Shown in pieces: positions 26,679-61,619 of a stretch of 64,000 bases of DNA; position 1 is the first letter of the stretch; each line of letters starts with the position of its first letter. The notes under the pieces were generated by a model. That model had not been told where the DNA came from. It saw only the letters and a list, made by a program, of their open reading frames with translations, and searched no databases. The position numbers and the translations under genes were made by a program. The DNA is taken from assembly GCA_964535805.1 (NCBI GenBank), contig CAZHUM010000001.1, forward strand, positions 39,122 to 103,121. The letters are read 5' to 3'. The DNA is from an uncultured Thermoplasmata archaeon. Lineage in GTDB: Archaea; Thermoplasmatota; Thermoplasmata; Halarchaeoplasmatales; Halarchaeoplasmataceae.

Positions 26679-26864
26679 TAAACTTAGAAAGGGGTGTCCC
26701 TTACTATTAATCTAATTGATATATCATAAAGTGTTATACCCTAAAATATATTTAATTCATTTTTTTAAAATCCGAAAAATCAATAAGCTTAATTATCCCG
26801 TATCTATTGGGGGTATATCGCTCTAACCATGGGTTTCATTCAATGTAGCCATGGAGGGATAGGC

Positions 26865-34602: not shown

Positions 34603-34611
34603 TTCATTGCT

Positions 34612-37515
<2,904 letters not shown>

Positions 37516-37523
37516 TGTTTATC

Positions 37524-45300: not shown

Positions 45301-45804
45301 CCAATCGAAGTAAAACAGGTATACGGTGTCGATGTAGTTCCCGTCGCAATGAGAACGGTTTACGATAATGGTAAACTTACATACCGTGTGAAAGTTGAGA
45401 ACAGCGGAAACGGGGATGACAGCTATAAATTATCTCTGCTCAACAAAGGATACCTTGAATCACAGGGATGGGAAGCTTCAGTTAACAATGAAACGGAAAC
45501 GATCACGGATGGTGGCCAAGAAGAGATAGAAATAACACTTAAGGCGAGATCAAGTAAGCCCAGCAGGAAAGTTGATGTAGAGTTAGAAGTCGTTTCTAAT
45601 GGGGATTCATCGGTTTATGAAGAAGAAGTACTAGAGGTTGTCCTACCAGAGATTCAATCAAGTAGCGATAATTTCTCACTTCACGGAAAGAATCTTGCTA
45701 CTGAGAAAGAGAAACTGGAGATCACGACAGGTCAGTGGTCGGTTATAATCATACTGGTGTTGATCTCTACATTCTATGTGGCTAGGAAGAAGAGGTGGAT
45801 ATGA
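39349..45804 (+). CDS. aglB: Giant AglB/STT3 oligosaccharyltransferase (2,151 aa). It comprises a 13-TM STT3 core with a WWDYG periplasmic domain, then about 1,100 aa of tandem CarboxypepD_reg/Ig-like beta-sandwich repeats and a C-terminal TM anchor with a polybasic tail.
   Basis: GGSDAYYYGRI first-loop acidic motif, multi-TM N-terminus and FLSWWDYGFECAR motif. Repeated G-K/N-V-x-x-x-x-G-x-P-I-x-x-A-x-(L/V)-T-V and D-(E/G)-x-G-x-Y modules run from about residue 900 to 2,050. It ends ...WSVIIILVLISTFYVARKKRWI. AGGTGA RBS is present. Confidence 0.85.
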   Translation: MRFSLPNLSKKTETRKHVDESILEKHWGTIVSLLGIFFLAFFIRTYFAFDLATKYGTPYLLSGGSDAYYYGRIIDYIQTNHQHLTFDPLLNYPMGSRNPRPPIFAWSIVLIGHLLSPFVGSVNVGINYAFILSTGFWGALTIFPVYLIGRDTFGKKAGMAAAFLLAISSGHLQRSPITNGDHDAIYLFFIVTAFYFFMKALEGIPDEKNWISSYKDPSAIKNGLKQFVMENKRSLLYSGLSGMSIASVALIWKGYAYVIVILIVYYFIQLFIDRLRTRDSLGITACIGISIGLAFLVSSPYYLIVGIGPRYFDIPLLMFAAGFGVGIFLTVTRDWPWVLTFSIIIAGLVVFILLGLYVLPSLLTALTSGAGYFVQTKAISTIAEAQAPAFSNLVMSFGLVSFFLSIAGIGLAIWHFKNSWKTNFLLILLWTALAIYMAMSAARFIFNSSPAFALTAGWVIALVVDKTDFPAISKTFQSFKGDVLYGIWKSVKLRHATVAVFVVFMIMVPNAMYGMDSGIPYEEKEGYNKQIHRALPEPIRPEGYNASSGDNWYLGAFGYALDKPNEYWPASWEWLARQDNDKEPAERPGFLSWWDYGFECARQGDHPTVADNFLNGHQLAGNVLMAQNESEILALFITRELEDTYSKSDGFDDDIEEILIDYIGEEKTHELERTFKDPERYKEEVLSNPEKYHPRDEDLDRHNIKYARCMGMLSYEGLDTLGELYRDISLKIDKRIKYIAMDTRLFPFSGTNTGIFYAPAKLSGHRIYEEHGMRTPIDFYKVLLVDEQGNEYENPDKVPQEVSITDYKIDYQPAFFNSTLYRVFAGYSAQEIGEGEGIPGLDNQELQPMPSWNMTHFKLSYRTAYFNPYPRDEVRDHPDAWKAISYEKALEYHQDDNVTVDLSAQSYMRQGVVYLEHFDGALISGKVTTEEGEPIANARLTVLDDTATPHQMDYTDEDGSYSLKVPSGNISVIASVGGLSGGQRAQNIESIMLGAFSMNISEEQAMRVKKDRDGDGTWDYLIDKNIKIDTGNLTVNVFVDENRDEKFSFENDTLVPGEITIENQRSGVEYVSEENNGSHTFTGILPGKYRVTTDVEGGMSITDVSVKSGAENEESIILTTGSISGNVEMDAENMNASSIELVVKNEEGGEMITSSIDQGGNYSIEHLRIGTYSIHVNTDGFAIREGAIRFIIDGEVSLTKNFNISRAERVNLRTKTSNKLLPYQKISFIDKENYRYSQTIQTGKEGKTEIKLPLGKYLVYGTVQRDNKFYVHMNTIEVTEEVNYTAELVRGFQVEGQVDSSEITSNMGSNILFSLDEDKQGLAATNREGLYSLVVEPGDYNIFGWNTVGATSSSFWKTETIDSETKIDFETKVSYRASGNVYRDLNLNGQYDKGEGISTEIKVTVSGNNYFFDSGFDGNYTLILPEKECRITFSKAGYIQKSVIYDPEVEFSRNINMNAKNLSVHGDIICNKEFSSLPVKFDPLSKGAVLNEISVNNSEYTTGLQPGDYEVTIYSSPSEGERYIYSTFVSLEPGEEDIELDLPVKYQVRMTGNIFGPAGDSTYAEIRLSGPEVRTLSGNGTYSGYFAPGNYTLWAVNKEEELINQTEVSLVSPIQLNITMEDAHIFSPFVTFDEEPRDNLPIMFEQIETGFVFNQTTDPDGTFNLPLVSGTYEVTVDYETTEPVEGVLRDVRYHYSDTFVIDSHMAPEIALNRDIINVTLEGVLKADDETVQGATIEFIANGPESMDTEVTTGSDGTYQLDISRGLYTVYCHVSGSKGLYAQFNEFIMPEANETLNINLSKAYKITGKVSKDSQDVEADIKVSSMKGVGEKIFHSDKNGEYEIVLPSGEYLITVTESVGGDNVYKASERIELEYSLKKNFVLKMVKEYGIETEELIEKTVKQGDNISFEVKVKNTGNTKDTYEFSAPKAIWDIEFTPKKMTVENGKTDTLIVDVHVSEDASANHPPISFNIDSMNSEKAEEVTLPIEVKQVYGVDVVPVAMRTVYDNGKLTYRVKVENSGNGDDSYKLSLLNKGYLESQGWEASVNNETETITDGGQEEIEITLKARSSKPSRKVDVELEVVSNGDSSVYEEEVLEVVLPEIQSSSDNFSLHGKNLATEKEKLEITTGQWSVIIILVLISTFYVARKKRWI

Positions 45805-46577
45805 TGAAGTGGCAAGTGGTTGTTATCTTACTTGTTTTATTTGCCTCTCTCAGTTTTGGATATCTCGGAGACGGTGGTGCAAAATTATCTCAAGCGGGTG
45901 TAGATGTAAACATTAATGGCCCTACACGTGTATTTAAAAACCACACTGTTCAGTACGAAATAGAGATCGGTGGAAGTTTCGGTCTATATGCCCAGAATTG
46001 GAGTATATCCATAGAAGAATCCGATGAGTACAGTGTTGACCAGTACCAAAAACAATCTATAAAATCAAATACATTTCAACTGAACTTCACCACTATGAAA
46101 GAGGGGAAAGCTACCCTCAATATCAAAGGATTCTGCTCCGATGGTGAAGAGACCAGATACAGAGAGGCTTCTTTGGATATAAAGTCCGTTGAAGCCGTGA
46201 GTGTTTTCGTTGACCTAAAGAATACGAAGGATATCACGATGGGTGATTTGAAATTAGGACTTTTCATCGATGGAAAACTCCAAAACACTAAGATCGTCAG
46301 TACTTTGGAACCCGGAGAGACTAAAAACATACAGATCAACTGGTCCAAAGACGGGCTTGACGAGGGAGAGCACGAGCTCGAAGTTTGGGTCGACTACGGA
46401 TACAATGAAGACGATTCCTTCGTTAGGGACGAGCTTTTAGTTGAAAAGACGTTCTACATCCAGGGTGAGAACACACTATATGAATACGCCTGGTTGATGA
46501 TAGCTGCCGGAATATTAGGATTCCTCGGACTGTATTACTACCTCAATAGGAAGAAGAGAAGAAGACGACCCTGGTGA
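45795..46577 (+). CDS. Hypothetical exported protein with an N-terminal signal/anchor, a beta-sandwich (CARDB-like) region, and a C-terminal TM plus RKKRRRRPW tail.
   Basis: The start codon overlaps the aglB stop (ATGATGA). N-terminal hydrophobic helix. The C-terminal LMIAAGILGFLGLYYYLNRKKRRRRPW resembles a sorting or anchor signal. Confidence 0.45.
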   Translation: MDMMKWQVVVILLVLFASLSFGYLGDGGAKLSQAGVDVNINGPTRVFKNHTVQYEIEIGGSFGLYAQNWSISIEESDEYSVDQYQKQSIKSNTFQLNFTTMKEGKATLNIKGFCSDGEETRYREASLDIKSVEAVSVFVDLKNTKDITMGDLKLGLFIDGKLQNTKIVSTLEPGETKNIQINWSKDGLDEGEHELEVWVDYGYNEDDSFVRDELLVEKTFYIQGENTLYEYAWLMIAAGILGFLGLYYYLNRKKRRRRPW

Positions 46578-46602: not shown

Positions 46603-47679
46603 ATGAAAATTGCCGTCGTAGTAGGTACAAGACCAGAAATAATCAAGATGAGTCCGATTATCAGGGCACTTAATGAAAGGGGGATGGATCATGATGTGAT
46701 ACACACCGGTCAGCACTATGATCACGAAGTTTCCAACATATTTTTTCAAGAACTTGATTTAGATAAACCAGCAGTTAACCTAGATGTCGGTTCTGGTAAA
46801 CAAGGTGAGCAAACAGGACAAGCACTTATCGGGCTGGAAAGAACCTTCGATGAATTAGACATCGACGTTGTTCTAGTGCAGGGAGATACCAATACGGTTC
46901 TAGCCGGTGCTTTAGCAGGTGTCAAAATGGGGTTGACGGTAGGTCATGTAGAAGCGGGGCTGCGCTCTTACGATTACCGCATGCCCGAGGAGTACAACAG
47001 GAGATTGACAGACCATGCATCTAAACTGCTTTTCGCTCCTACGGAGCACAGCGCCGAACTCTTGAAGGAAGAAAATGTTTGGGGGGACATCTATGTCACG
47101 GGCAACACGGTGATCGACGCTTGCATACAGAATATGAAGATCGCCTCTGGAAAAGCTGAATTCGATTTCGATGTTCCTGAGGATTACGTACTGATAACTG
47201 CCCACCGAGCTGAGAACGTGGACGATGAAAGAGTGCTCAAAAATTTTATCCAAGTTTTCGAGGAAATCGATCGTGAGATGGTGTATCCCATACATCCACG
47301 AGCGAGGAAAATGTTCGAGAATTTTGGGTTATGGGATAGGTTGGTCGACGTCCCGGGGATGCATGTAGTAAAACCACAGGGATATCTTGAGTTCTTGCTC
47401 CTTATGAAAGGGTGTAGATACATATTAACGGATTCTGGCGGGATACAAGAAGAGGCGACGGCACCCAGCATCAAGAAAAAAGTTTTCGTGCTCAGGGAGT
47501 CAACAGAGAGGCCTGAAGCAGTGGACGCCGGACATGCAGAGGTTGTGGGAACTAGGAGTGAAGATATCGTCGCCGGTATCAGAGAGTTTGAAGGGGAAGA
47601 TTGGGATCCAAGGGAATGCCCCTACGGAAAGGGGGATGCAGGAGTAAGGATCGTAGAAATTATCTCTGAAGAGTGCTAG
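46603..47679 (+). CDS. wecB: UDP-N-acetylglucosamine 2-epimerase (non-hydrolysing).
   Basis: MKIAVVVGTRPEIIKMSPI, HTGQHYD, LVQGDTNTVLAGALAG, HVEAGLRS and DSGGIQEEA. Confidence 0.9.
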   Translation: MKIAVVVGTRPEIIKMSPIIRALNERGMDHDVIHTGQHYDHEVSNIFFQELDLDKPAVNLDVGSGKQGEQTGQALIGLERTFDELDIDVVLVQGDTNTVLAGALAGVKMGLTVGHVEAGLRSYDYRMPEEYNRRLTDHASKLLFAPTEHSAELLKEENVWGDIYVTGNTVIDACIQNMKIASGKAEFDFDVPEDYVLITAHRAENVDDERVLKNFIQVFEEIDREMVYPIHPRARKMFENFGLWDRLVDVPGMHVVKPQGYLEFLLLMKGCRYILTDSGGIQEEATAPSIKKKVFVLRESTERPEAVDAGHAEVVGTRSEDIVAGIREFEGEDWDPRECPYGKGDAGVRIVEIISEEC

Positions 47680-48497
47680 ATAAGGCCCTCATAAATCCCG
47701 ACTAAAATTTTTACTATTTTCTTTGGATCGTGATACTTTTGGACGAATTTACGCGGATTTTTTACCCTGTCGGGATCCTCGAATCCGTAGAAAGATGTGT
47801 ACTTTTGGGGAAAATCTGTGTAGGTTTTTAGACCACATGCCATCGCTTCTAGCCGCGCTAGAGAGACAGGGTCGACGAGGGCGCCTATCATCTTCTCGTA
47901 CCTGTTAAAGAGTTCAGGGAGCTCGTCGTGGGGTGTGAACGGCAGCATGTTTACGTTCCTTGGGAATTTGATCTCGTCGCCCCAGTTGATGCAGTCGTAT
48001 TTCTTCTTGGGGTCGATATGTTTGAGGATGCCGCTATTGTGTCTGAATCTGCCCAATAAAAGTATCTTTTCGGATTTTTCCGTTTCTTTAGGCTTGAATA
48101 ATTCCAGATCAACTGGATTCGGTAGATAAAGGCCCGTCGCCATCTCCATCAAATCCGGGGTACTCAACAAAACGATATCCGCCCTTTTCCGGATGTGGCT
48201 GCTGATTAACCTGTGGTGCAAGGGCAGTTTCTTTAGTCCTTCCGTGGCAACTAACCTCACATCACTCCCGTGACAATGTAATATGAATGGGATTTTTTTC
48301 CTTTTTGATTTTCTATAAGCCCGTATGACGGATTTCGTCAGTGCATAATGGCCGTGGACAACGTCGAATCCATCGATATCACCGGGTTCGTATCTAAGTT
48401 CTGGCTTAACACCGTAATCCTGAAAATGTTTGCTATAGGTCCGGTATATGTTCTGCATAGGGACTGCATCTTCAGAGCATACGTGAAGTACTTTCAT
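47676..48497 (-). CDS. Short GT-B fold (GT4-like) glycosyltransferase.
   Basis: The C-terminal SLARLEAMACGL matches the GT4 E-x7-E region, and the N-terminus has a Rossmann-like VLHV...HGH. Weak. Confidence 0.4.
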   Translation of the reverse strand: MKVLHVCSEDAVPMQNIYRTYSKHFQDYGVKPELRYEPGDIDGFDVVHGHYALTKSVIRAYRKSKRKKIPFILHCHGSDVRLVATEGLKKLPLHHRLISSHIRKRADIVLLSTPDLMEMATGLYLPNPVDLELFKPKETEKSEKILLLGRFRHNSGILKHIDPKKKYDCINWGDEIKFPRNVNMLPFTPHDELPELFNRYEKMIGALVDPVSLARLEAMACGLKTYTDFPQKYTSFYGFEDPDRVKNPRKFVQKYHDPKKIVKILVGIYEGLI

Positions 48498-48557
48498 TCG
48501 TTTTGGTGTAATAATTAAAGAGTAAATTACTCTTTTGGTTGTGAATTATATCAATAA

Positions 48558-49796
48558 CTAGGGGAATGGATAGCTCTCATCTATTAGATTTTTTATAGTG
48601 GTTTTGTTTTCATTTGAGATATCATTCCTTTCTCCTGGATCTTCCTTAAGATTGTAAAACTCTAGATTTTTGGTTTCTTCATCATAGATCAGTTTATAGT
48701 CGTCTTTGACAAATCCGTAGATGTTGTAATCCAATTTATCGGGATGTCCGATCAGATTAACATCTCCCTTCATACAGCTTCTGTTCCCTGCATGGCAGGC
48801 TCGAAGGGGGATCGAATCATCCTGGTTCGCTTCCTTTTCAAAGGTGTTGGATCCAGGTTTCATTATGGAAAGGAGTAATTCGGGTACATCTCTCAACTGT
48901 CTGATGGGCAGACTTGCTTCATTTTTGCTCTTCACCTTGACGACCAGGGGAACTCGAACCAATTCTTCATACAACTGTGCTGGATGCCCTAAAAATCCGT
49001 GCTCATAGAAACCCTCTCCGTGATCTGCAGTTATTATCAGGTCGGTGGTGTCCCACAAATTCTGATTTTTTAACATTTCACACAGCGATCTGATCTGGAT
49101 GTCCGTCCATCTTACGCAATCGTTATACAGCTGTCTTAAATCTTTCAAGGTTTTTTCGTCTCCTAGATCATGCAATCTATGCTCTTTTCTAAATTTGTTG
49201 AGACGTACGATATCGCTATAGTTGAACTTGGTATTTTCTAATGGAGGTGTGTATGGATAATGGGTATCCATGAGATGCAGCCATAGGAAAACGGGCTCGT
49301 TGCGTGTTAATACTCTGGTTGCATCTTCAATCGCCACTCCACTGCCCCAAGCTGAGGTTATATCTTCCTTAAAATACCATTTATACACATCTTTAAGATC
49401 CCTCAGAAATTTTGGAGCTTTATCGATCATGGATGATGCGCTCACTCTTCTTTTGGCCCGTAAAGAAGACATGTAATCCTCGAAAAATGAAAAACCTTTC
49501 TGATATCCGGAGAGGCTTGATATGTATGGGTTATTGGCCACCACGCCCGCTGTTCTATAGCCCCTTTCTCTGTAAAGCTCAACAATTGTGGGGGATATTA
49601 TCTTGGGTTTATCGAAAAAGGGGTGATAATTCATATTGAACAAACTGGGGAAGGAGAAGGGTGTGGAAGGACCGTTTGCATAAACTTTGGATATGTGTGC
49701 ACCCTCCTTCCTTAGAGCTGAAAGGTCGGGCATGATGGACAGCGCATCAGCTCTTAGCGAATCGACAGTCAGGAGTATGACTTTATGCTCAGCCAT
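48558..49796 (-). CDS. Alkaline-phosphatase superfamily (sulfatase-fold) protein lacking the C/S-x-P-x-R formylglycine motif.
   Basis: VILLTVDSLRADAL metal-binding N-terminus. There is no CxPxR motif, so it is probably not a true sulfatase. The start was placed at the internal ATG (MAEHKVILLTV). Confidence 0.55.
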   Translation of the reverse strand: MAEHKVILLTVDSLRADALSIMPDLSALRKEGAHISKVYANGPSTPFSFPSLFNMNYHPFFDKPKIISPTIVELYRERGYRTAGVVANNPYISSLSGYQKGFSFFEDYMSSLRAKRRVSASSMIDKAPKFLRDLKDVYKWYFKEDITSAWGSGVAIEDATRVLTRNEPVFLWLHLMDTHYPYTPPLENTKFNYSDIVRLNKFRKEHRLHDLGDEKTLKDLRQLYNDCVRWTDIQIRSLCEMLKNQNLWDTTDLIITADHGEGFYEHGFLGHPAQLYEELVRVPLVVKVKSKNEASLPIRQLRDVPELLLSIMKPGSNTFEKEANQDDSIPLRACHAGNRSCMKGDVNLIGHPDKLDYNIYGFVKDDYKLIYDEETKNLEFYNLKEDPGERNDISNENKTTIKNLIDESYPFP

Positions 49797-49854
49797 GGCG
49801 TGTAAATCGAATAGATATTTAAATAAATATCCCAATAAAATATATTTAAACGAC

Positions 49855-52800
49855 CTAATAATCCACGGACCAATCTACGGGGGCATCCGCCCCATTATAG
49901 ACCCAATATGCTCTACCTTTTACCAAAACCTCGGTTGAAAGGTCTTGGATGTACTCCAGATTGTAGGGGGCCCATTCATTATAAACACCGAGTTTCGTGA
50001 TCTCTGATGGGAGGGTATTTGAGGCGATTTTATTAGATTCGGATGGATATCCTACCATGTTCCATCCTGGTTTCAATTCGATCTTTGTTCTGTATGGGTG
50101 ATGACCCTGGATGGTTAGTGTGTCGTTCTTCGTCATGTGTATCCAAATACCCATGGTATGATCCCATGTGTTAAGGTCGTTATAATGACTCGATCTACCC
50201 GCGGCGAACGTTTTCCACTCTCCATCTGTGCTGTCATAGTACATCACTTTATCGTAACTTCCTTCTATACCCCTTTCTGGGGCGTTCAACATTGATTCTA
50301 TGCTCTTATCTTTCGGAACTAAATTTGTAGAGATAAAATTCCATCCTTCTGATGCCCCGCTTGATCCTAGTGTGATATTGTGTGTCAAACTCCTTCTAGC
50401 TTCGTAATATCGGTCCCATAAAAAACTTCGGAAGGGATTGTAATGAACGTAGAGGAATCCTATCACCTCGGGATCGTTGGTCAATCTGTCCGTATCTATT
50501 TGGAACCAGTTGAACGTTCCGTCGTCGTTGAAAAATATATTGGAATATTTGATATTATCTATCTTAGAAACGTTCCTACCGGTGGTATTGTAAAGTGAGC
50601 TCCATGAGTTATATGTCGTGATCGTTGCACTTCCTCCGTTGTGTGTATCGATGGCAGACCTGATAGTGAGATGTTGTTCTACATAATCTGTGTAGTTATC
50701 GATCGTCTTGGATATGTTGTCCCAGTTAAGGTATGTATTTGTTCTGGCAAGTTCTTTGGCAGCTAGTGCACCATACTTCATGCTCCTTCGTCTCCATGGG
50801 TCCGGCTCATCTAGATAACTAAAATATGCCCAAGTGCCCTTGGAATCGCCGGTGTATATCTGATCGTTGATTATGTATCGAATACAAGTCCTCATGTGTG
50901 GTAAAAGCCTATCGTCGTGATAGTAACTGCTGTTCAAGTTTTCATCGAAGTACGCTTGTGTGAATAACCTGCCAAGTTTACTATAACCATTTACGTAAAC
51001 AAATGGATGGTCTTTGTTCACCCCTTTTATCCCCCCTGAACCGTTGTTGGGTTCCGTGGATGTCCATGGCACGGTGTAGTTGATTCCACCATGATATGTG
51101 ATATTGTCCATGGCCACCTTGTTCAAAATAAAATCGATGACCGTATCGAATGCATTTAGATACGTTTCATTGTGTGTGTAAAAATATGCATCCTGCAGGG
51201 CCAAAGCGGCTCTAACGTTTCTATGTGTGTTCCATTCCTCGTATGTATCTTCAAATAGTCCTCTTACTTCGTAAACCGTACTAAAATTGTACAGACCCCA
51301 CTCATCCCTGAAGCTCAAGGCGTAATCGAATTGTTTTTCTCCTCTTTCAAGATAGCTATCGTTACCGGTGCGTGCGTGAGCACCGTAGTATGCAAGTCCC
51401 ATCTCCATCAATATATCAGGCAGCCAATCTTCGTAGATCGTATAATACCCGTCGGCATCTTCGTTCTTTACCCCCCATTCCATCATCTGCAGGCATTTTT
51501 CTGTTTTGTTCTTATAGGGCACGATGGTTTCGTTGTAATAACCGGCGAAGAAAACGTCTGACCACGCCTTGAGGTTGTCATCTGTAATGGATCGAACCGG
51601 GTCGATTTCAGCGCGTATCTTATCATATCCTTCAACCTCTGGAATCCAATCTACTGATATTTTTTCAGACGCATCCGGTGACACGGAGATACTCTTTTGT
51701 GCGATCGGAATTTCTCTGTAATAGAACGTAACATTACCTTGGTAGTTTTGTGTAAGATTACTGGTGACGGAAACGGATAAAGTTATGTTCTGCGGACCCA
51801 TAGAATTATTTATGGGTACGAAAGAGGTGGGATCGGTGGTGACGTTGGTAAGGTAAATCCTTTCCGTGGTTGAGGTGTTAAGAGAGATGAAATTATAAGA
51901 GGAGGGTGAGAAGTAAGTAGTTTTATTGTCCGCTGTTATCCCGAAAATATTTTTTTGTGAATATGTGCTGCCGTTAGTCCTCCATATGAATGGTATCTCG
52001 TGTAATCTACCGATGTCATCGGTCCAGTAGGTTCTCTCACTACCGCCCTCCTTTGGGAAAATTTTTACTTCATGATTTTCGAGTATATCGCTACCGTTCT
52101 TCACCAGAAAGTCATGATAGTAGCCTTTCTTGATACGCCCGCCAGATGTTATCTCCCAGTCATCTATGGTGCAGTTCATCAGAGTTAAATTCCCACTGCT
52201 GGTCACGCTAGCATCGTATTCCCAGTTATCATAGAATGTAGAATTCGTGATGTTCACGAAATTGGTCCCGCTCGATAGTAGAATTCCTGTACTGTCAAAA
52301 TTTTTAAAGGTTATATTATTGAGATATTGGTCGGTTATATCTCCGGCGGCATAGAAAACCAGTCCGTTTAACCCGCTGGACAGTATGGTGTTCACTATTT
52401 CTACACCAGTACCATAGATCTCTATCCCCCTTTTACCTACGTTATTACCCCACCCCGTGTCCATTATATGGCTCCCTTCAACGTACAAAGTACCGGATTC
52501 GTTCTTATGTATGTTGTATCGGTTCTCTCCTTCCCACCACCTCTTTTCCTCGGGCTTGCCCGCTATCTCTGAGCGAGTTATGTTAACCCCTCCGGTTGAG
52601 TTTATCTGGAAGGTTTTTTCGTTATCAAAATATAGGGTCTCATCCGTTATATTCAACCATCCTTGAACCGTAAGATTCGCATAACAATACCCCGTGCGGT
52701 TTGGACTGTCGTAGTAGAAAACGGTTTCATCGCCAACATCAGTGTATATCGATGAGAGTGAATTACCTCCTCCAAACACATAGATCGTATCATGGGATGA

Positions 52801-52926
52801 AGAATAAGAGGATGTAGATGGTGTGAGGCTAATACCTTCTTCACTCGATATTCCCTCTAAATAAATGGGAGTTATCATCAAAATGACTAGTATCAATGCA
52901 GCTACTCCTCTGGTTATCTTCATCAA
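49855..52926 (-). CDS. Secreted 1,023-aa protein with an N-terminal right-handed parallel beta-helix region and a central (alpha/alpha)-toroid-like region. It is a probable heavily N-glycosylated surface protein or glycan-processing enzyme.
   Basis: Signal peptide MMKITRGVAALILVILMITPIYL. Beta-helix repeats (NITFKNFDSTGILLSSGTNFVNITNSTFYDN). It contains more than 30 N-x-S/T sequons. Confidence 0.55.
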   Translation of the reverse strand: MMKITRGVAALILVILMITPIYLEGISSEEGISLTPSTSSYSSSHDTIYVFGGGNSLSSIYTDVGDETVFYYDSPNRTGYCYANLTVQGWLNITDETLYFDNEKTFQINSTGGVNITRSEIAGKPEEKRWWEGENRYNIHKNESGTLYVEGSHIMDTGWGNNVGKRGIEIYGTGVEIVNTILSSGLNGLVFYAAGDITDQYLNNITFKNFDSTGILLSSGTNFVNITNSTFYDNWEYDASVTSSGNLTLMNCTIDDWEITSGGRIKKGYYHDFLVKNGSDILENHEVKIFPKEGGSERTYWTDDIGRLHEIPFIWRTNGSTYSQKNIFGITADNKTTYFSPSSYNFISLNTSTTERIYLTNVTTDPTSFVPINNSMGPQNITLSVSVTSNLTQNYQGNVTFYYREIPIAQKSISVSPDASEKISVDWIPEVEGYDKIRAEIDPVRSITDDNLKAWSDVFFAGYYNETIVPYKNKTEKCLQMMEWGVKNEDADGYYTIYEDWLPDILMEMGLAYYGAHARTGNDSYLERGEKQFDYALSFRDEWGLYNFSTVYEVRGLFEDTYEEWNTHRNVRAALALQDAYFYTHNETYLNAFDTVIDFILNKVAMDNITYHGGINYTVPWTSTEPNNGSGGIKGVNKDHPFVYVNGYSKLGRLFTQAYFDENLNSSYYHDDRLLPHMRTCIRYIINDQIYTGDSKGTWAYFSYLDEPDPWRRRSMKYGALAAKELARTNTYLNWDNISKTIDNYTDYVEQHLTIRSAIDTHNGGSATITTYNSWSSLYNTTGRNVSKIDNIKYSNIFFNDDGTFNWFQIDTDRLTNDPEVIGFLYVHYNPFRSFLWDRYYEARRSLTHNITLGSSGASEGWNFISTNLVPKDKSIESMLNAPERGIEGSYDKVMYYDSTDGEWKTFAAGRSSHYNDLNTWDHTMGIWIHMTKNDTLTIQGHHPYRTKIELKPGWNMVGYPSESNKIASNTLPSEITKLGVYNEWAPYNLEYIQDLSTEVLVKGRAYWVYNGADAPVDWSVDY

Positions 52927-52979
52927 TATATAACAAGCTTATTCATCCTATTAATTAATTTTCCCACAGATAAATTCAT

Positions 52980-54461
52980 TCACGGTCGAACCTTTTTTCC
53001 CATGCCCAGAAGCTCCTTCATCATCTTTATATCGTTTTCGCCTATGCCCTTCAATAAATAGAGCGTGATGAAATACAACGTGATAGCTATCGGAAGGAGC
53101 CAGAGCGGTGTTATGGTGAGTGGTATGTATTCATTGGAATACAAGAATACCGCCATGATCACACTTGAGATATAGGGTTTCCAAAAATCAGTTAATGGGA
53201 TAGCGCCTAGGTATGATGTGACTATCCTATAATTTGCCATGAAATGCACGATCTCGGCCAGGACTACTGCTATAGCCGCTCCTACAACACCGAATCGGGG
53301 TATCGCTATTATAGCTGTGACGATCAGAACAAGGGAAGCGAGTGCTAGATTTTTTGTTGAATCCTTGGTTTTGTCGCTGCCCCAGAGGGCCATTTTCAGG
53401 CTGCCGTTCATGAACAAAAAGGGCAGCATCCATACGATGTTTCTAAAGACTGGAACGGTGGCTGAAAACTCCGTACGATAAATGAATTGGAGTATATCTT
53501 CTCCGATGACATACAATCCCAATGTCAGCGGAAGAGAAAACACGAGGAGATATCTCAACGAATGACGGTATGTTTTCTTCATTATCTTTTTACTTGAATG
53601 ATGGTGTTGCGAGAATATCGGGTAAAGTGCCCTTCCGAAAGAGTATGGGACCACACCGAAAAAGACTATTATCTTCCAGCTTGCTCCATATACGCCGGTG
53701 GAATAATCGCCTTCGAAGATAGATAAAAGTAAGATGATAACGTGTCCGTAGACCATACTCAGGAAGATGAAGACCGTGAACGGAGAGGCTTTTTTAACTA
53801 AATCTGGCCATTTATTTAATGTTGGCTTTTTTATGCTGCCGTTCAACATCGAATAATATACGAATAAAGAGATTAAGAAATTGAAAAGGTAAGAAACAAA
53901 GAGCAGAAGTAGGATATAGAACAGATCGAAACCCAAATAAATTCCTATGAAACCCAGGGCTAAATAAACAGATTTCGAAACAGCCGTTGTGAATGCCTGG
54001 AATTCCATCCTCTGCAATGCCTGAAATTGGGCAATAAAAGCTCCAGAAAGTTTTTCCAACAGTATCATAGATGCCGCGACGATCAGCACGGGAACAGGTA
54101 GCTTGACGTTGAGTTCCCTGAATATGGTGTAATAGACTATATATAAAAGTGAAAGAGTCAGTAATCCTAGCAGTACACGGAGGGCCAATATATTTCCCAA
54201 CATCTCTGGTGCCTTTGATTTATCTCGGGAGACCTCCCTTATTGTTAACTCATCGAAACCGAAATCGGCTATCACCGTAGCCACATAAGAGAGCGAGATC
54301 GCGATGTTGTACACACCGAAGGACCTCGGAAGGAGATGGTTAGCTAGGAGGATGATAAACAACGCTGTCAATACTCTAGATGTCAGCTTCGCTCCTATCA
54401 GCCATGATGTGTTCTTCGCTACCTTTAAGGACTTTTTCAAGATATCAAATATAGTTAACAT
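52980..54461 (-). CDS. Oligosaccharide/polysaccharide flippase (Wzx-like, MOP superfamily).
   Basis: About 14 predicted TM helices across 493 aa. Typical polysaccharide-biosynthesis-protein topology. Confidence 0.7.
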   Translation of the reverse strand: MLTIFDILKKSLKVAKNTSWLIGAKLTSRVLTALFIILLANHLLPRSFGVYNIAISLSYVATVIADFGFDELTIREVSRDKSKAPEMLGNILALRVLLGLLTLSLLYIVYYTIFRELNVKLPVPVLIVAASMILLEKLSGAFIAQFQALQRMEFQAFTTAVSKSVYLALGFIGIYLGFDLFYILLLLFVSYLFNFLISLFVYYSMLNGSIKKPTLNKWPDLVKKASPFTVFIFLSMVYGHVIILLLSIFEGDYSTGVYGASWKIIVFFGVVPYSFGRALYPIFSQHHHSSKKIMKKTYRHSLRYLLVFSLPLTLGLYVIGEDILQFIYRTEFSATVPVFRNIVWMLPFLFMNGSLKMALWGSDKTKDSTKNLALASLVLIVTAIIAIPRFGVVGAAIAVVLAEIVHFMANYRIVTSYLGAIPLTDFWKPYISSVIMAVFLYSNEYIPLTITPLWLLPIAITLYFITLYLLKGIGENDIKMMKELLGMGKKVRP

Positions 54462-54521
54462 CAGAGTTTATAAAAATTCTTCTATCGCTATATTTTTAAA
54501 TGTCGATAAGGGCTTTTTGGA

Positions 54522-55601
54522 TCAAAAATACGGATTTTTTCCTTTCTTACAAAGTTCAAAACTCTCGGGCCACTTCTCGTAAAACCACACCATGAAGGAT
54601 GTTACGTCTATCTTTTCCTTCAACAAGCGTTTCCGTTTTTTCCGCCATGTTTCTTTTAGTGTAGGGGTTTTTAACAGGTCCTGCGCCTTTTCTAATGCAC
54701 CCCTGGGGGTATCTATAGAAAAACCCAGTCCGTACCTTCTTTCCTGGTCGTCCAAGTAGCCTCTTCTCTCCTTCCCGGATATCCATATCCAGGGCACACC
54801 CAATACACCGGCTTCCGAGGCCAATGTAGCTCCCTCCCCCACATACAAGTCAGTATAGTAAAGAAGGTCGTGTATATCTTCAGGGGATATTTTAAGCCCT
54901 TTATCGCGCATCTCAGACGGGAGGTCTATCTCAGAAGTCACTAAAACCTTTCCATGCTCTTCCAAACGGGATACAAGATCCATCCTCTCTTCCATATCTT
55001 TAAATGTTTTTTGACCGATATCGTGGCTGGAATCCCATGAGGAAAAACGTACCAATATGATCCTCTCGTCCGAAGAAACATCGATTTTATCTAATACGGA
55101 TGGATCCGGATCGAAGCGGTTTGGGTGTAGGTAGGCCAATTCATGGTATCCAGGATACTGGATGTATCTTCCCGTGGGTACTCTAGAGGAAAAGCAATCC
55201 GGCGTCATGATGGCAGAAGCGAAGGGAAATGAAACGGTATGGATGATCTTTGCTGGCTCGGTGTCCGGCCAAACGATGGAATCGGCTCCGAATATTTTCG
55301 CCACGTGAGACACTGCGAGTTCCCCCGTGGCGGTTATTATGTCGGGGCGGAATTTTCTGGATATGTCGTAGAGGCGGCGGTGGCGCTTCAGCTGTCCGTA
55401 ACCTTTACCGACCATGCTGTCGTACAGTTTTTCATACACATCATACTCCAAACCGTACGTGTCAAGTAGATACGACGTTATCTCTCTATCCACTACGACT
55501 ATCTTTACGTCATGTCCATCGCTTATCAGCCTCTTGACGGCGTTCCTAAAAAAATGTACATGGGCTGGGTGCTGGATGGTTATTAATATTTTCATTTTCA
55601 T
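54522..55601 (-). CDS. DUF354-family protein (archaeal GT-B/epimerase-like fold).
   Basis: The N-terminus MKILITIQHPAHVHFFRNAVKRL matches the DUF354 hallmark (MKIW.DI.N.PHVHFF). Confidence 0.6.
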   Translation of the reverse strand: MKMKILITIQHPAHVHFFRNAVKRLISDGHDVKIVVVDREITSYLLDTYGLEYDVYEKLYDSMVGKGYGQLKRHRRLYDISRKFRPDIITATGELAVSHVAKIFGADSIVWPDTEPAKIIHTVSFPFASAIMTPDCFSSRVPTGRYIQYPGYHELAYLHPNRFDPDPSVLDKIDVSSDERIILVRFSSWDSSHDIGQKTFKDMEERMDLVSRLEEHGKVLVTSEIDLPSEMRDKGLKISPEDIHDLLYYTDLYVGEGATLASEAGVLGVPWIWISGKERRGYLDDQERRYGLGFSIDTPRGALEKAQDLLKTPTLKETWRKKRKRLLKEKIDVTSFMVWFYEKWPESFELCKKGKNPYF

Positions 55602-55645
55602 AAGATAAAGGGCGTGGGAAATTTATAACATTTTTGTAAAGAACG

Positions 55646-56572
55646 TCAAAAATGCTTTTTCACATGGCCCTTGAGCTTTTTCCAATCGCTGTCAGATACT
55701 TTTTGCATATTAGAAGAAGCTAACGATGGAGTATCTCTAGAGATACGTTGTAATGTTAGGCCAATATCGTTGTAGAAACGATTTATAGATTTCAACTGTA
55801 GCTCTGTGTTCTTGCACAATTCTTCATAGTTAACGAGATGTATAGCCTTGATTTCATTTTTCTTTATCGATTTTTCTATGTGGTCTTCCAGGGATTTTAC
55901 CTGCAAAACAACTTGTTCATGAGGTGGGTGTTCCGTTATCTTTTCATAGCCAGGGGGTTTGATGCCGAACCATCTTTTGTAGTCTCCGTACCTTTTCCGT
56001 CTGGAGATCAACAAAGATTGGGCGGTATAAAGGGGGTCACGTTTCATGAAAAGGAATACTGGATTTGAAAAGATTTGATTGATTTCATCTATCTTTTTAC
56101 TCAGATCTAGGTTCTTCCAGATAAAGGGTCGAGAAGTGAAATATGAGATATATCCGATCGTTTTGGATATTCGTTTCCGTTCTTTATCATCCATTTTACC
56201 GGATTCGAACCAGTATCGATAAAGCTGCCCGGCTTCCGATGGGGAGCGGATGCCTTCGATAAGCCCGTATTCACTTTTGTAATCATCTGGGTCGTACCTT
56301 TTCTTTTCACTACAAAATTTCTTAGTCGCCCAAGCGGGACTTTTATAGAAAAAAGCCGTGATGTTGGAAAAATATGAAAAATTGAAATTGGATGCTAACA
56401 GTTGATATAATAGGGTAGAACCGCTTCTAGGTGGACCTATTATAAATGTCGGTGAGAAGGGTAAATTATGATCTGATTTGTCAAGTAAGCGTTTCTCTAA
56501 GTATTCAAATACGGGGCAGCTAGGCACCGTTTTTTGAAGTGCCAGTAATACTTGTCTAAATGTGAAATTCAT
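55646..56572 (-). CDS. Sulfotransferase-family protein (PAPS-dependent).
   Basis: 5'-PSB-like P-loop FIIGPPRSGSTLLYQLL. The start was set at the internal ATG (MNFTFRQ) to minimise overlap. Confidence 0.55.
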   Translation of the reverse strand: MNFTFRQVLLALQKTVPSCPVFEYLEKRLLDKSDHNLPFSPTFIIGPPRSGSTLLYQLLASNFNFSYFSNITAFFYKSPAWATKKFCSEKKRYDPDDYKSEYGLIEGIRSPSEAGQLYRYWFESGKMDDKERKRISKTIGYISYFTSRPFIWKNLDLSKKIDEINQIFSNPVFLFMKRDPLYTAQSLLISRRKRYGDYKRWFGIKPPGYEKITEHPPHEQVVLQVKSLEDHIEKSIKKNEIKAIHLVNYEELCKNTELQLKSINRFYNDIGLTLQRISRDTPSLASSNMQKVSDSDWKKLKGHVKKHF

Positions 56573-56582
56573 GTGTATCCCC

Positions 56583-57572
56583 CTACAGCAGCCTCCTATA
56601 CAATTTGTATGCTTTTTCACTCATGGACAGCATGATGGGTTTATGGACCTTTTCATAGCGTCCGAAATTGACTTTTTTACCGCCGAATCTCCTCTTGAAC
56701 TCCCTGGGCCCGTATTTTTCGTCCGGGTGTCCAGCACCCCCGAAATCGAATATTTTATAACTTCCTTCTACACCGTGTTTCAGGAATTCCCACACGAGCA
56801 GTTCATTTGCATGTTCATCTCTGTAACCCTCTTCGTCCCCTGCATACCAATCGTAGATGGTGTGCATGTAACACAGCGCGATCCTCCCTGCGATAGGAAT
56901 TCCCTTATTGTAAGCCAATAACGGCAGTATCATTTCTTTGTCTGATAGGTTTTTAAAGGCTGAAGTGAATAGGGATTTACTTGCCACCGGAATCTGAACC
57001 CTGCTGTAGGTTTTTTGAATCAGGTCGTACAATATCTCCATCTCTTCCACCGTTGACACCTTTTTGACTTTTATCCCCGCCCTCTGTGCTTGTCTTATAC
57101 CCTTTCGCCTGCTTTTACTGAAGCCGTTCCATACCTCATCTTCACTGCAATCTAAATCAACCAAATAATTAAGATGGGAGTCAAAATCAAAATCCTCGTC
57201 GATTATTTTTTTCTTATAATGGCTGGTGTCGAAAAGATTCCTCAATTGAGTGAATATAGCCTTTTTTTCCACTCTATCCGAAAATTTCTCCAACAGTGGC
57301 CCTACTATAGATGGGTCAGATACCAAAGGTCCCCCTCTTACTACACATCTAGATGACATCTTCCCCTTGATAAAACCGCTTTCTTGGATGATGACACCCT
57401 GAATCAGTCCTTGTATGTCTCCTCTTTCCTTAGCTACGATGAACACTGGCTCGTAGTAGTCGGTGTCTGAATACACCTCATTCATCTCCGGGCTCTGGAA
57501 GATATTTCCATAGGGGTGTATAGAAACGTATCGAGCCCATTCTTTGTTTTCGACAGCCCCCACTATTTTCAT
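56583..57572 (-). CDS. FemAB/BioF2-like GNAT-fold acyl- or aminoacyl-transferase (Acetyltransf_6-like).
   Basis: Collinear resemblance to FemX/BioF2-like proteins (GFxKxxxSRRKGIRQAQRAGIKV..., FDFGGAG). Confidence 0.45.
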   Translation of the reverse strand: MKIVGAVENKEWARYVSIHPYGNIFQSPEMNEVYSDTDYYEPVFIVAKERGDIQGLIQGVIIQESGFIKGKMSSRCVVRGGPLVSDPSIVGPLLEKFSDRVEKKAIFTQLRNLFDTSHYKKKIIDEDFDFDSHLNYLVDLDCSEDEVWNGFSKSRRKGIRQAQRAGIKVKKVSTVEEMEILYDLIQKTYSRVQIPVASKSLFTSAFKNLSDKEMILPLLAYNKGIPIAGRIALCYMHTIYDWYAGDEEGYRDEHANELLVWEFLKHGVEGSYKIFDFGGAGHPDEKYGPREFKRRFGGKKVNFGRYEKVHKPIMLSMSEKAYKLYRRLL

Positions 57573-58480
57573 GTGACACCTCCCATATGTTTCAACTCTC
57601 GTTTCATGGTTTTTCGATCCTGAAGACAGAGCATATCCAGGTCACCAGTAATAGCGATATAACGTTTAGAATCCACTGGGGTCCTGGCAGAGGATATTTT
57701 TGCAGCAAGGGTCGATAATTTCAAAAACTCAGCGTTGTGTTCTCTGCCGTATTTTATCAAATCTCTGAGGGCCCTTTCACAGAACGATATCCTTTCGGGA
57801 TGCAGTTGGATGACCAATGGGTATTTATTTCGAAATGCACTTTTTGCCATTTCTATCCAATATCGGCTTATGTCTTTGTCACTGAATCCGAACCTGTCCA
57901 CCAATATCTCGTCATCTGGTAACCAGACGGGTATCATAGTGACCCCGTGTTTAGATTTAATTTCTGGTTCGCTGAGGGGAGCATAGTAATCGATTATCGT
58001 GCTGCACTTGCTGTTATTCCTATATTTATCAGGCAGCACACCGGAGTCGTAGGATTGTGATGAATCATAGGTAAAATTTTCCGATAATTTTTTTATCAAT
58101 TTTTCGTTCCATGCAAGATATGGTGCCCTGAAGCCCTCTGGTTTAAAGCCATTTTCACGGAATATCTGAACCGCTGATTTCAGATGGCGATCTATTTCGG
58201 TATCTGGTAGTACACGATAATCGATATGAACGTGTCCGTGCACTCCGAACTCTACTATGTCTGAATCGATACTACCTAAAAAATCTGAATGTTTTTCTAA
58301 AACGACCGCGGGTATGAATATGGTGAGGGGGGTTTGGCTTTCCTCCACGATCCCGATGTATTTTTTTATATTTTGTTCCATCTTTTTGGTACTAAAGCCG
58401 TATCTCCTTCGCATATTGAAGAAACGTTTGACAGTACCTATCAAACCCTTAGTTTTAATCGAGTGATAAGATGGAGCCAT
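57569..58480 (-). CDS. Polysaccharide deacetylase-like (NodB/CE4 homology) protein.
   Basis: FGVHGHVHIDY (HGxxH-like) and RAPYLAW motifs. Confidence 0.45.
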   Translation of the reverse strand: MAPSYHSIKTKGLIGTVKRFFNMRRRYGFSTKKMEQNIKKYIGIVEESQTPLTIFIPAVVLEKHSDFLGSIDSDIVEFGVHGHVHIDYRVLPDTEIDRHLKSAVQIFRENGFKPEGFRAPYLAWNEKLIKKLSENFTYDSSQSYDSGVLPDKYRNNSKCSTIIDYYAPLSEPEIKSKHGVTMIPVWLPDDEILVDRFGFSDKDISRYWIEMAKSAFRNKYPLVIQLHPERISFCERALRDLIKYGREHNAEFLKLSTLAAKISSARTPVDSKRYIAITGDLDMLCLQDRKTMKRELKHMGGVT

Positions 58481-58576
58481 ATCGTTTAAGACATTTATAA
58501 CATATTATTTATAACTAATGAGGATATCAATGAACGCGACCAAAAATAAGAAACGGCACAAGACGGACGAAAAAAT

Positions 58577-59083
58577 ATGAGCTTGATGAACATATTATTC
58601 AGCATCGGAAACGACCCCCTTCAGTATTCCATATTATTCTTCACCTACGCTGTTCTAGCTGCCGTTATACTGCCCATACCCGTAGAAGTCGGGCTGTTCA
58701 ACTTCCATATACACCCCGCCATATTGATCACCGTACTCGCTTTGGGCAAGGGTGTCGGATCATTCATAGTTTTCGAGATCGGTACGAAAGTAAGAGAACG
58801 CTTCAAAAAGATGTCAGTTGAGAACCGGTTCATCCAGAAGATCGTTGATTTTTCCGAATGGTTCGTTGAGAAATACGGTTCCGTGGGCCTATTTTTGATC
58901 TTAAGCACACCGCTGATGATAGATTCGATTACCCTGTACCTCTTTTCTTTGCTGAATCCAGAGGAAGATCATGGAAGAGCTCTGTCTAGAGAATGGTTCG
59001 TTTTCATAAATATAATGAGTGGGGCCGTCAGAGGACTGATAACGTTGATCGTGTATTACTACCTGAACATCAAATTAACGTAA
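58577..59083 (+). CDS. Small multi-TM membrane protein, YqaA/DedA (VTT-domain)-like.
   Basis: Four predicted TM helices, size and pattern like COG1238. Weak. Confidence 0.35.
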   Translation: MSLMNILFSIGNDPLQYSILFFTYAVLAAVILPIPVEVGLFNFHIHPAILITVLALGKGVGSFIVFEIGTKVRERFKKMSVENRFIQKIVDFSEWFVEKYGSVGLFLILSTPLMIDSITLYLFSLLNPEEDHGRALSREWFVFINIMSGAVRGLITLIVYYYLNIKLT

Positions 59084-59114
59084 ATAATAATATACCGTAT
59101 GCATAATAACGCCC

Positions 59115-59684: not shown

Positions 59685-59695
59685 ATAAATAATAT

Positions 59696-61607: not shown

Positions 61608-61619
61608 GTGTTTTTTAAA

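Follow-up and report, generated by a model that had tools for sequence, protein, structure and literature searches.

Clusters of glycosylation genes anchored by aglB and sulfated N-glycans are already known in archaea. In Halobacterium salinarum, the aglB cluster (VNG1048G-VNG1068G) encodes the sulfatase-fold proteins Agl30 and Agl31 (VNG1056C and VNG1057C), which the organism needs in order to sulfate its N-glycan and which, when expressed in Haloferax, lead to sulfation of the Haloferax glycan (PMC11980604); the gene beside that of Agl31 encodes Agl32, a glucuronic acid (GlcA) C5-epimerase reported to resemble entry 5ZIG of the Protein Data Bank (PDB) (PMC12624080). Archaeal N-glycan pathways have been worked out in a handful of species, none of them halophilic Thermoplasmata. 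Here we analyzed a 64-kb stretch of DNA (the window) from an uncultured Thermoplasmata archaeon, in which an island of putative surface-glycan genes adjoins aglB. The nearest relatives of the island proteins come from metagenome-assembled genomes (MAGs) labelled Thermoplasmata or 'Candidatus Saliniplasma', the latter belonging to Ca. Halarchaeoplasmatales, a halophilic lineage of Thermoplasmatota from soda-saline lakes described as 'salt-in' (PMC11332174).

The locus resembles the euryarchaeal agl clusters of H. salinarum and Haloferax volcanii in that the oligosaccharyltransferase gene is flanked by genes for sugar-nucleotide enzymes and glycosyltransferases, a Wzx-like flippase candidate (cf. 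AglR/Agl29), glycan-modifying enzymes and a sulfatase-fold protein (cf. Agl30/Agl31), and in its halophilic host. It differs in having a Thermoplasmatota host, an AglB of about twice the size with repeats and a second anchor, an embedded gene for a secreted protein of 1,023 amino acids (aa), and no initiating transferase nearby, as well as in the addition of genes for a 3'-phosphoadenosine-5'-phosphosulfate (PAPS)-type sulfotransferase, a FemAB-like acyl- or aminoacyl-transferase and a CE4-like deacetylase-fold protein (hereafter, the trio). In the searchable literature, we found no report of any of these three enzyme types in archaeal N-glycosylation.

Our preferred reading, held with a confidence only a little better than even, is that the locus is an aglB-anchored glycan-assembly island making modified N-glycans. 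WecB would supply uridine diphosphate (UDP)-N-acetylmannosamine (ManNAc), and ManNAc would enter a dolichol-phosphate-linked oligosaccharide on the cytoplasmic face, to be extended by the GT4-like and DUF354 enzymes. In this strain, the CE4-like protein would de-N-acetylate the oligosaccharide, the FemAB-like protein would acylate the resulting free amine anew, perhaps with an amino acid, and the PAPS-type enzyme would add an O- or N-sulfate from PAPS; N-sulfation by this enzyme is pure conjecture. In all relatives, the core sulfatase-fold enzyme would add a further anionic group, either a sulfate, like Agl31, or a phospho-substituent. Wzx would then flip the finished lipid-linked product, and AglB would attach the glycan to Asn sequons in proteins of the cell surface, one of them the 1,023-residue protein, which in its turn probably alters extracellular glycans, be it as epimerase, lyase or hydrolase.

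Composition and synteny of the island

All open reading frames (ORFs) named in the initial annotation of this DNA were found, at the coordinates it had assigned to them (Table 1). Annotation with profile hidden Markov models upheld its family calls for WecB, the sulfatase-fold protein, Wzx, DUF354, the sulfotransferase, the FemAB-like and the CE4-like protein, the weakest call being that of the GT4-like glycosyltransferase, which is sub-threshold and based in part on a motif. One contiguous island with aglB had been proposed, and the genes are indeed contiguous in the window. We compared them with contigs carrying orthologs of the 1,023-residue protein, among them L004, a near-twin strain 96.5-98% identical to the window. 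A core of genes for AglB, the CARDB protein, WecB, the GT4-like enzyme, the sulfatase-fold protein and the 1,023-residue protein is syntenic in four of these relatives, of 52-98% identity (L001, L003, L004 and L005), and since it recurs in four other genomes, the clustering is beyond chance. Wzx and DUF354 follow in L001, L003 and L004, and then the VTT/DedA-like, GDT1-like and NUDIX genes. The trio, on the other hand, does not belong to the conserved aglB island and is accessory at the strain level: among the island loci it is found, just upstream of DUF354, only in the window and in L004 and is absent from L001, L003 and L005, with DUF354 directly abutting the VTT gene in L001 and L003. We infer the N-linkage of the product only from the conserved adjacency to aglB.

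Table 1. Coordinates of the island genes, of a protein of bacterial modules and of other genes in the window (TM, transmembrane)
Feature	Position	Strand	Profile match, bits (cut-off), or other evidence
AglB oligosaccharyltransferase, giant, 2,151 aa	39349..45804	+	PF02516 49 (24.5); PF13620 135
CARDB-domain bitopic membrane protein	45795..46577	+	PF07705 35; TM-like segments at N- and C-terminus
WecB, non-hydrolysing UDP-N-acetylglucosamine 2-epimerase (to UDP-ManNAc)	46603..47679	+	TIGR00236 371 (210); PF02350 341
GT4-like GT-B glycosyltransferase, short, 273 aa	47676..48497	-	Sub-threshold PF13579, PF13439, PF00534; 'EAMACG' motif
Sulfatase-fold protein (alkaline-phosphatase superfamily), soluble	48558..49796 (ORF to 49835)	-	PF00884 92 (25)
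1,023-aa multidomain protein, secreted or N-terminally anchored	49855..52926	-	N-x-S/T sequons (see text)
Wzx/MOP-family flippase candidate	52980..54461	-	PF01943 99.3 (28.2); PF13440 57
DUF354 protein, predicted GT-B-like glycosyltransferase	54522..55601	-	PF04007 49.9
PAPS-type sulfotransferase, likely start M16 (309 aa)	55646..56575 (ORF to 56620)	-	PF13469 53.8 (27)
FemAB/FemX-like (Acetyltransf_6) acyl-/aminoacyl-transferase	56583..57572	-	PF02388 73.6 (24); PF13480 54.3 (22)
CE4-like polysaccharide deacetylase-fold protein, non-canonical motif order	57569..58480	-	PF01522 36.2 (23.1)
VTT/DedA-like membrane protein	58577-59083	+	PF09335 28, under cut-off
GDT1/TMEM165-like membrane protein	59115-59684	+	PF01169 148
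Protein of ~260 aa in bacterial modules	L050 4126-4902; L079 5919-6713; L008 8233-9018; L039 9906-10670		
Response regulator	1766-2485		
Ras/Roc-family small GTPase	2520-3326	-	PF00071 102
Fic/DOC-family protein	19179-20087	+	
DNA polymerase D large subunit (DP2)	26829-31631	+	
23S rRNA gene, complete, archaeal	34607-37520	+	
Double zinc-ribbon protein	60324-61607	+	
Giant coiled-coil ORF	61619-64000	+	

Divergence is concentrated in the centre of the island. Between the window and L003, protein identity is 82-88% in the flanks and falls to 72% for the GT4-like enzyme, 57% each for the sulfatase-fold protein, the 1,023-residue protein and Wzx, and 43% for DUF354, and the DNA cannot be aligned from 51662 to 58625 except for a patch of about 620 nt inside Wzx. 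The centre is so much more divergent than the flanks that, judged by these comparisons, it is a strain-variable zone, like surface-antigen loci. At the same time, all island genes are under purifying selection, with a ratio of nonsynonymous to synonymous substitution rates (dN/dS) of 0.13-0.46 relative to L004. The gene for the 1,023-residue protein is inverted relative to its neighbours in L001 (10001-13084), L002 and L005. We considered an invertible switch, but there are no flanking inverted repeats in the window, L001, L002 or L005, which points to an old rearrangement instead. Between the CARDB gene and WecB, L001 and L005 carry an inserted beta-oxidation trio (enoyl-CoA hydratase, 3-hydroxyacyl-CoA dehydrogenase, thiolase).

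AglB consists of an STT3 membrane core with the WWDYG motif ('SWWDYGFE'), CarboxypepD_reg/transthyretin-like repeats spanning about 1,250 aa and a C-terminal TM segment, the last (aa 2125-2145) of 12 TM-like segments and the second anchor of the protein. Orthologs of 2,150-2,250 aa, likewise about twice the usual size, occupy the equivalent position in relatives. The CARDB gene, the start of which overlaps the aglB stop by 10 nt, adjoins aglB in all four contigs with the syntenic core, and its product may be a partner of AglB, considering this arrangement. Within aglB, nucleotide identity to L004 is only 71-91% over 2 kb (40850-42850, aa ~500-1170) and about 98% elsewhere. This stretch encodes the external domain and the first repeats, and the synonymous substitution rate (dS) between window and L004 is 0.30 for AglB, against about 0.04 for neighbouring genes. 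The local drop in identity, together with the raised dS, points to local recombination or a mosaic patch in the oligosaccharyltransferase ectodomain.

WecB has 74-86% identity in relatives and the GT4-like protein 67-72%. Wzx, with eight long TM-like stretches in a coarse hydropathy scan, is the sole polytopic protein between aglB and the VTT gene. The GT4-like, DUF354 and trio proteins have no TM segments and should therefore act in the cytoplasm, on the lipid-linked or nucleotide-sugar stage. DUF354 proteins have a glycosyltransferase-like fold and an obscure function (PMC4520260), and a sequence search against the PDB returned nothing useful for this one. Its gene is resident in the islands of relatives, the protein sharing 42-44% identity with the L001 and L003 copies and 70% with the copy on L010, a metagenome contig. 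Exchange of the trio and DUF354 as one unit is unsupported: in a neighbour-joining tree, the window DUF354 groups weakly with Thermoplasmata copies from loci that have no trio, which indicates that DUF354 is resident and that the trio was gained or lost beside it.

The sulfatase-fold and 1,023-residue proteins

The sulfatase-fold gene is present in the island of every relative. The true start of its product is most likely M14, giving a protein of 412 aa in agreement with the start calls in relatives, and there is no TM segment. The motifs DSLRxD, G-P-S-T-P-F-S-F-P and DHGE..H are invariant, DSLRxD and DHGE...H forming the metal site. At the position of the formylglycine motif (C/S-x-P-x-R), the window clade has S-T-P-F-S and haloarchaeal relatives have W-T-P-F-S, the Arg being absent; across the wider family, invariance extends only to the Thr and the Phe-Pro of the motif, the Pro after the Thr being nearly invariant. 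This wider family (26-33% identity) includes proteins of Haloarcula, Halobaculum, Natronococcus, Haloquadratum, Hermod-/Promethearchaeota and bacteria, among them haloarchaeal 'sulfatases' of about 470-490 aa. The initial annotation was right that the formylglycine motif is lacking. With an invariant Thr and no Arg at this site, the protein is not a formylglycine sulfatase and, as far as its motifs tell, should not be filed as a sulfatase.

Members of the sulfatase/alkaline-phosphatase superfamily with a Thr nucleophile, such as LtaS and EptA, are typically phospho-transferases, not sulfuryl transferases. The core protein may thus be a candidate Agl31-like sulfotransferase or else a phospho-transferase. 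It shares with Agl30 and Agl31 the sulfatase fold and the location in an aglB cluster, and is soluble like Agl31; it may differ in the invariant Thr and the missing Arg of its family. Because the core gene is conserved and Agl30/Agl31 set a precedent, sulfation need not depend on the PAPS-type enzyme, and the predicted sulfate may come from the sulfatase-fold gene, from the PAPS-type enzyme or from both. The Thr-type branch of the fold, common to haloarchaea and Asgard archaea, may include the sulfatase-fold sulfotransferases discovered recently.

A stronger version of this idea, which we regard as a substantial minority possibility, holds that sulfation is mainly the work of the conserved sulfatase-fold enzyme, that the glycans of all relatives are sulfated, and that the PAPS-type protein is a strain-specific extra or acts on another acceptor. 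The universal presence and solubility of the core protein would fit, as would the fact that the metal site and the invariant Thr are kept where the formylglycine motif is not, and the membership of the haloarchaeal 'sulfatases' in its family. Agl30/Agl31 of the Halobacterium aglB cluster offer a precedent, being needed for N-glycan sulfation at home and able to bring it about in Haloferax (PMC11980604), and the neighbouring 1,023-residue protein contains a region resembling the fold reported for Agl32 (PMC12624080). Two points are harder to accommodate: a Thr nucleophile, as in LtaS and EptA, is typical of phospho-transferases, and a Haloarcula homolog has GtrA-like and oxidoreductase genes as neighbours and aglB nowhere within 10 kb, although this second point is in itself uninformative.

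The 1,023-residue protein comprises a signal or anchor (aa 1-29), a Ser/Thr-rich linker, an AlgG-like right-handed beta-helix (~40-340), a CARDB-like Ig domain (~375-450), a conserved alpha-helical, alpha/alpha-barrel-like region (~456-847) and a C-terminal beta domain (848-1023). More than 30 N-x-S/T sequons had been attributed to it; we counted 35, against 14.3 ± 3.2 expected from composition shuffles (z = 6.4). All 11 full-length orthologs carry 25-40 sequons, and of those in the window protein, 13/35 are kept in 10/10 orthologs (~50-63% identity) and 18 in at least eight. The protein itself gives no Pfam match, while Beta_helix and CARDB are each matched in 7/12 orthologs. In the AlphaFold2 (AF2) model, the predicted local distance difference test score (pLDDT) is about 90 for the beta-helix (40-340), the Ig/CARDB-like domain (380-445) is fair, and the helical region is fair in parts at ~500-690 and poor at 690-946. 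A secreted S8 protease and a NosD-like protein have a module in common with it, made up of its C-terminal 176 residues, and we found neither a C-terminal anchor nor a PGF-CTERM on this protein.

The best structural match of the beta-helix is the alginate C5-epimerase AlgG, at 13% sequence identity. Like AlgG/AlgE epimerases and right-handed beta-helix lyases or depolymerases, the protein is a predicted extracytoplasmic enzyme encoded inside a glycan locus; it differs from them in this low identity, in three further domains, in its ~35 sequons and in that DPHD, the catalytic motif of AlgG, is not seen in the beta-helix sequence. The most conserved part lies elsewhere: in comparisons with L001, L003 and L005, identity is 68-71% in the alpha-region and 41-45% in the beta-helix, and many acidic, basic and aromatic residues (Asp/Glu/His/Arg/Trp) of the alpha-region are invariant. 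Judged by sequence conservation, this suggests an exposed, rapidly changing domain in front of an enzyme core. The initial annotation proposed an AglB substrate or a glycan-trimming enzyme; the beta-helix by which it named the protein is just the N-terminal third, and the whole resembles a secreted glycan-processing enzyme, glycosylated itself, more than it does a mere substrate.

A purely structural role is nevertheless conceivable, and we think it rather unlikely: the protein would be chiefly an S-layer-like envelope glycoprotein, an AglB substrate exposed as an antigen to phages and predators, with no enzymatic function. Such a role would explain the many conserved sequons in every ortholog, the N-terminal signal or anchor with its Ser/Thr-rich linker, the rapid evolution of the exposed beta-helix with no evident AlgG motif, and a C-terminal domain that occurs in other secreted proteins. 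It sits poorly with an interior alpha-region that is the most conserved part and has the invariant residues typical of an active site, with the small size of the family, which is always embedded in a glycan island, and with the missing C-terminal anchor or PGF-CTERM.

The alpha-region may also link the protein to Halobacterium. In the AF2 model, it resembles 5ZIG, the PDB entry reported for Agl32, so that the sulfatase-fold gene and its neighbour would parallel the Agl31/Agl32 pair. This model-based parallel is suggestive, and it is weakened by the low confidence of the model in this part, by a C5-epim_C match (PF06662) that is weak (E = 0.01) and confined to 1/12 orthologs, and by a PDB search with a profile of the family alpha-region, which gave no match.

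The strain-specific trio and its bacterial relatives

The initial annotation would have fallen if domain searches had placed the sulfotransferase, the FemAB-like and the CE4-like proteins in unrelated families. They were placed in the expected ones, 3/3 above the Pfam gathering scores. In the sulfotransferase, the 5'-phosphosulfate-binding loop (GPPRSGST) and the Arg/Ser of the 3'-phosphate-binding site are retained, with G47, P49, R50, G52, T54, R179 and S187 invariant in 29 homologs. Its AF2 model has a pLDDT of 92.4, and the top 32 Foldseek matches in the PDB are all PAP(S)-binding sulfotransferases, while a sequence search against the PDB found nothing. The FemAB-like protein gives a weak match to the FemX-type lipid II:glycine glycyltransferase 6snr. 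Its best NCBIfam match is TIGR03019 (pepcterm_femAB) at 80.6 bits against a cut-off of 260, below the XrtA/PEP-CTERM equivalog, and that of the CE4-like protein is TIGR03006, again weak (21.5 against 276). XrtA/PEP-CTERM exopolysaccharide (EPS) loci, to which these two families belong, thus resemble the window in having adjacent FemAB and deacetylase genes in a polysaccharide context; they differ in that the scores here fall far under the equivalog cut-offs and that a sulfotransferase and DUF354 adjoin the pair in the window. No XrtA, archaeosortase or PEP/PGF-CTERM protein is encoded in the window.

The PDB matches of the CE4-like protein are CE4 deacetylases. A search of 1.8 billion representatives yielded 607 relatives, 30 of which were aligned. 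Invariant among these 30 are H81/H85 (motif 2, MT2, HxxxH), R118-P120-Y121 (MT3, RxPY), D189-D190, L226-H227 (MT5, LxH) and T-G-D280-x-D282 on a C-terminal strand. In CE4 enzymes, MT1 (TFDD) lies on the first strand and provides the catalytic base and the metal-binding Asp. The C-terminal T-G-D280-x-D282 may be a permuted motif 1, going by the alignment, and a deacetylase activity appears plausible, if not canonical. Inactivity for want of motif 1 is disfavoured, since the His-His, Arg-Pro, Asp-Asp, His and T-G-D-x-D residues are invariant across the family. The sulfated, deacetylated and possibly aminoacylated glycan that had been predicted from the trio is therefore partly supported: the three families hold, while sulfate may also come from the core sulfatase-fold enzyme and the CE4-like protein lacks the canonical Asp-Asp.

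The trio might be seen as a recently acquired passenger of bacterial origin that is irrelevant or decaying, a view that we consider very improbable. Its genes are absent from both closer and more distant relatives, their homologs are mainly bacterial, and the products are basic (isoelectric points of 9.6 for the sulfotransferase, 8.6 for the FemAB-like and 9.2 for the CE4-like protein), as opposed to the acidic neighbouring soluble housekeeping proteins; WecB, NUDIX, AglB and the 1,023-residue protein have values of 4.8-4.9, and the GT4-like protein has 9.3. Yet the ORFs are intact, with dN/dS values of 0.16-0.46 relative to L004, their GC content matches that of the neighbours, the catalytic motifs are conserved, and the same gene order recurs on L010, another contig, at 50-70% identity.

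Nearly every homolog of the sulfotransferase (25-39% identity) comes from a bacterial MAG, with many phyla represented, and in about 9/80 genome loci the sulfotransferase gene has a FemAB-like gene within ~1.5 kb. The order FemAB-like, sulfotransferase, DUF354 on the same strand is seen in Bacteroidota and Chloroflexota polysaccharide loci, with examples in L014 (Bacteroidales), L039 (Brumimicrobium), L050 (Caldilineaceae) and L079 (Chloroflexota), and in the metagenome contigs L006 and L010. L010 has the full order CE4-like, FemAB-like, sulfotransferase, DUF354, and a further metagenome contig, L008, has the pair without DUF354. In L079, WecB and an ATP-grasp gene follow the module, and DUF354 is near WecB in L050 and L072 as well. 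The bacterial modules also encode a conserved protein of ~260 aa with the motifs LRHDxD, GHExGYHYE and HPERW and no Pfam or NCBIfam match. Its gene immediately precedes that of the FemAB-like protein in L008, L050 and L079, the slot occupied in the window by the CE4-like gene, and in L039 it lies downstream of DUF354. In the PDB, the protein has only weak matches, all of them CE4 deacetylases. We considered homology to the CE4-like protein of the window, but hhalign gave a probability of 0.7%, which does not support a relationship.

In heparan-sulfate N-deacetylase/N-sulfotransferase (NDST), as here, a deacetylase-type enzyme is paired with a PAPS sulfotransferase, the two being encoded side by side in the window, and NDST1 is found at rank 32 of the structural matches of the sulfotransferase. 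The differences are that the two functions would reside here in separate proteins with folds unrelated to the NDST deacetylase domain, and that the O-sulfotransferases Stf9, 3-OST and TPST match better. One may combine these likenesses in a joint proposal, which we put forward as speculative and quite doubtful as a whole: the CE4-like, FemAB-like, sulfotransferase and DUF354 genes would be a cross-domain, horizontally mobile glycan-editing cassette, and the sulfatase-fold and 1,023-residue proteins would be the counterpart of Agl31/Agl32. The cassette would convert a lipid-linked N-acetyl-hexosamine (ManNAc, supplied by WecB) into an N-deacetylated and then N-aminoacylated and/or N-/O-sulfated sugar by heparan-like NDST chemistry with unrelated folds, and the pair, one member cytoplasmic and the other extracytoplasmic, would carry out sulfation and uronate epimerisation. 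If true, glycosaminoglycan-like, highly anionic N-glycans would have arisen in halophilic Thermoplasmata independently or by transfer.

Several points weigh against modified N-glycans as the product. The relatives of the trio lie overwhelmingly in bacterial polysaccharide loci with genes of glycosyltransferase families 2 and 4 (GT2/GT4), not in protein-glycosylation loci, and the product therefore need not be N-linked. No initiating dolichol-phosphate transferase of the AglH/AglJ type is found in the 64-kb window among ORFs of 200 aa or more, possibly being encoded elsewhere, and no PAPS-synthesis genes lie within the window. The GT4-like protein is small by the standards of GT-B enzymes and scores below threshold (27.9 bits against 29.7), with a donor-site-like 'EAMACG' retained; DUF354 has no known activity in the literature (PMC4520260); and the canonical N-terminal MT1 (TFDD, Asp-Asp) is missing in the CE4-like protein.

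Membrane lipoglycans are known in wall-less Thermoplasmata. The island, or at least the part with Wzx, DUF354 and the cassette, could accordingly build a glycoconjugate not linked to protein, be it an exopolysaccharide or capsule or a membrane lipoglycan, and adjoin aglB because both use the dolichol carrier. We consider this unlikely. The setting of the sulfotransferase relatives and of the FemAB-like/sulfotransferase/DUF354 module in bacteria would suit such a product, as would the EPS-associated NCBIfam matches, a secreted AlgG-like beta-helix enzyme of a kind typical of EPS loci, and the missing initiating N-glycosylation transferase. Against it, the island lacks a Wzy-type polymerase, any regulator of chain length and any export component, with Wzx as its only polytopic protein; the core stays tied to aglB across rearranged genomes; and the embedded secreted protein has conserved sequons.

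If the preferred reading is correct, the island would represent a compact set of genes that make a glycan, probably an anionic, sulfated one, in a second halophilic lineage, with a bearing on sulfation as a salt adaptation. The presence of the trio in two strains and its absence from relatives provide a natural experiment through which genes could be linked to glycan features, and DUF354 and the FemAB-like/sulfotransferase pair, the latter also widespread in bacterial polysaccharide loci, would gain a first functional context. Within the searchable literature, the lineage, the FemAB-like/sulfotransferase/DUF354 module and the fact that it occurs within an agl-type island appear to be new, as do the Thr-type sulfatase-fold family and the embedded AlgG-like secreted protein. 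Should the predictions fail, what is left is an ordinary, correctly annotated agl-type cluster.

Flanking genes and the remainder of the window

The island is bordered by the VTT/DedA-like, GDT1-like and NUDIX genes (58577-60259, +), with equal neighbours in L001, L003 and L004. In bacteria, DedA proteins recycle polyprenyl phosphate, and in eukaryotes, GDT1/TMEM165 provides Mn2+ for glycosylation. It is possible that the two membrane proteins act here as helpers, in polyprenyl-phosphate recycling and in Mn2+/Ca2+ supply, respectively.

The remainder of the window is housekeeping in nature, with genes for DNA polymerase D, aminoacyl-tRNA synthetases, pyruvate:ferredoxin oxidoreductase and others. 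The large subunit of the polymerase contains an intein with a LAGLIDADG endonuclease domain. The 23S rRNA gene is unlinked, with no 16S or 5S rRNA gene near it, and no tRNA gene was found anywhere in the 64 kb. A gene for a small GTPase of the Ras/Roc family adjoins that of a response regulator, and a Fic/DOC-family protein is encoded beside an AAA-ATPase gene and an ABC-2 transporter pair. Downstream of the island come the gene for a double zinc-ribbon protein, which has a long Glu/Lys-rich coiled coil, and then a giant coiled-coil ORF continuing past the window, with at least 794 aa inside it (32% Glu) and about 1,350 aa in relatives; these two ORFs explain why purine skew is extreme where the window ends.

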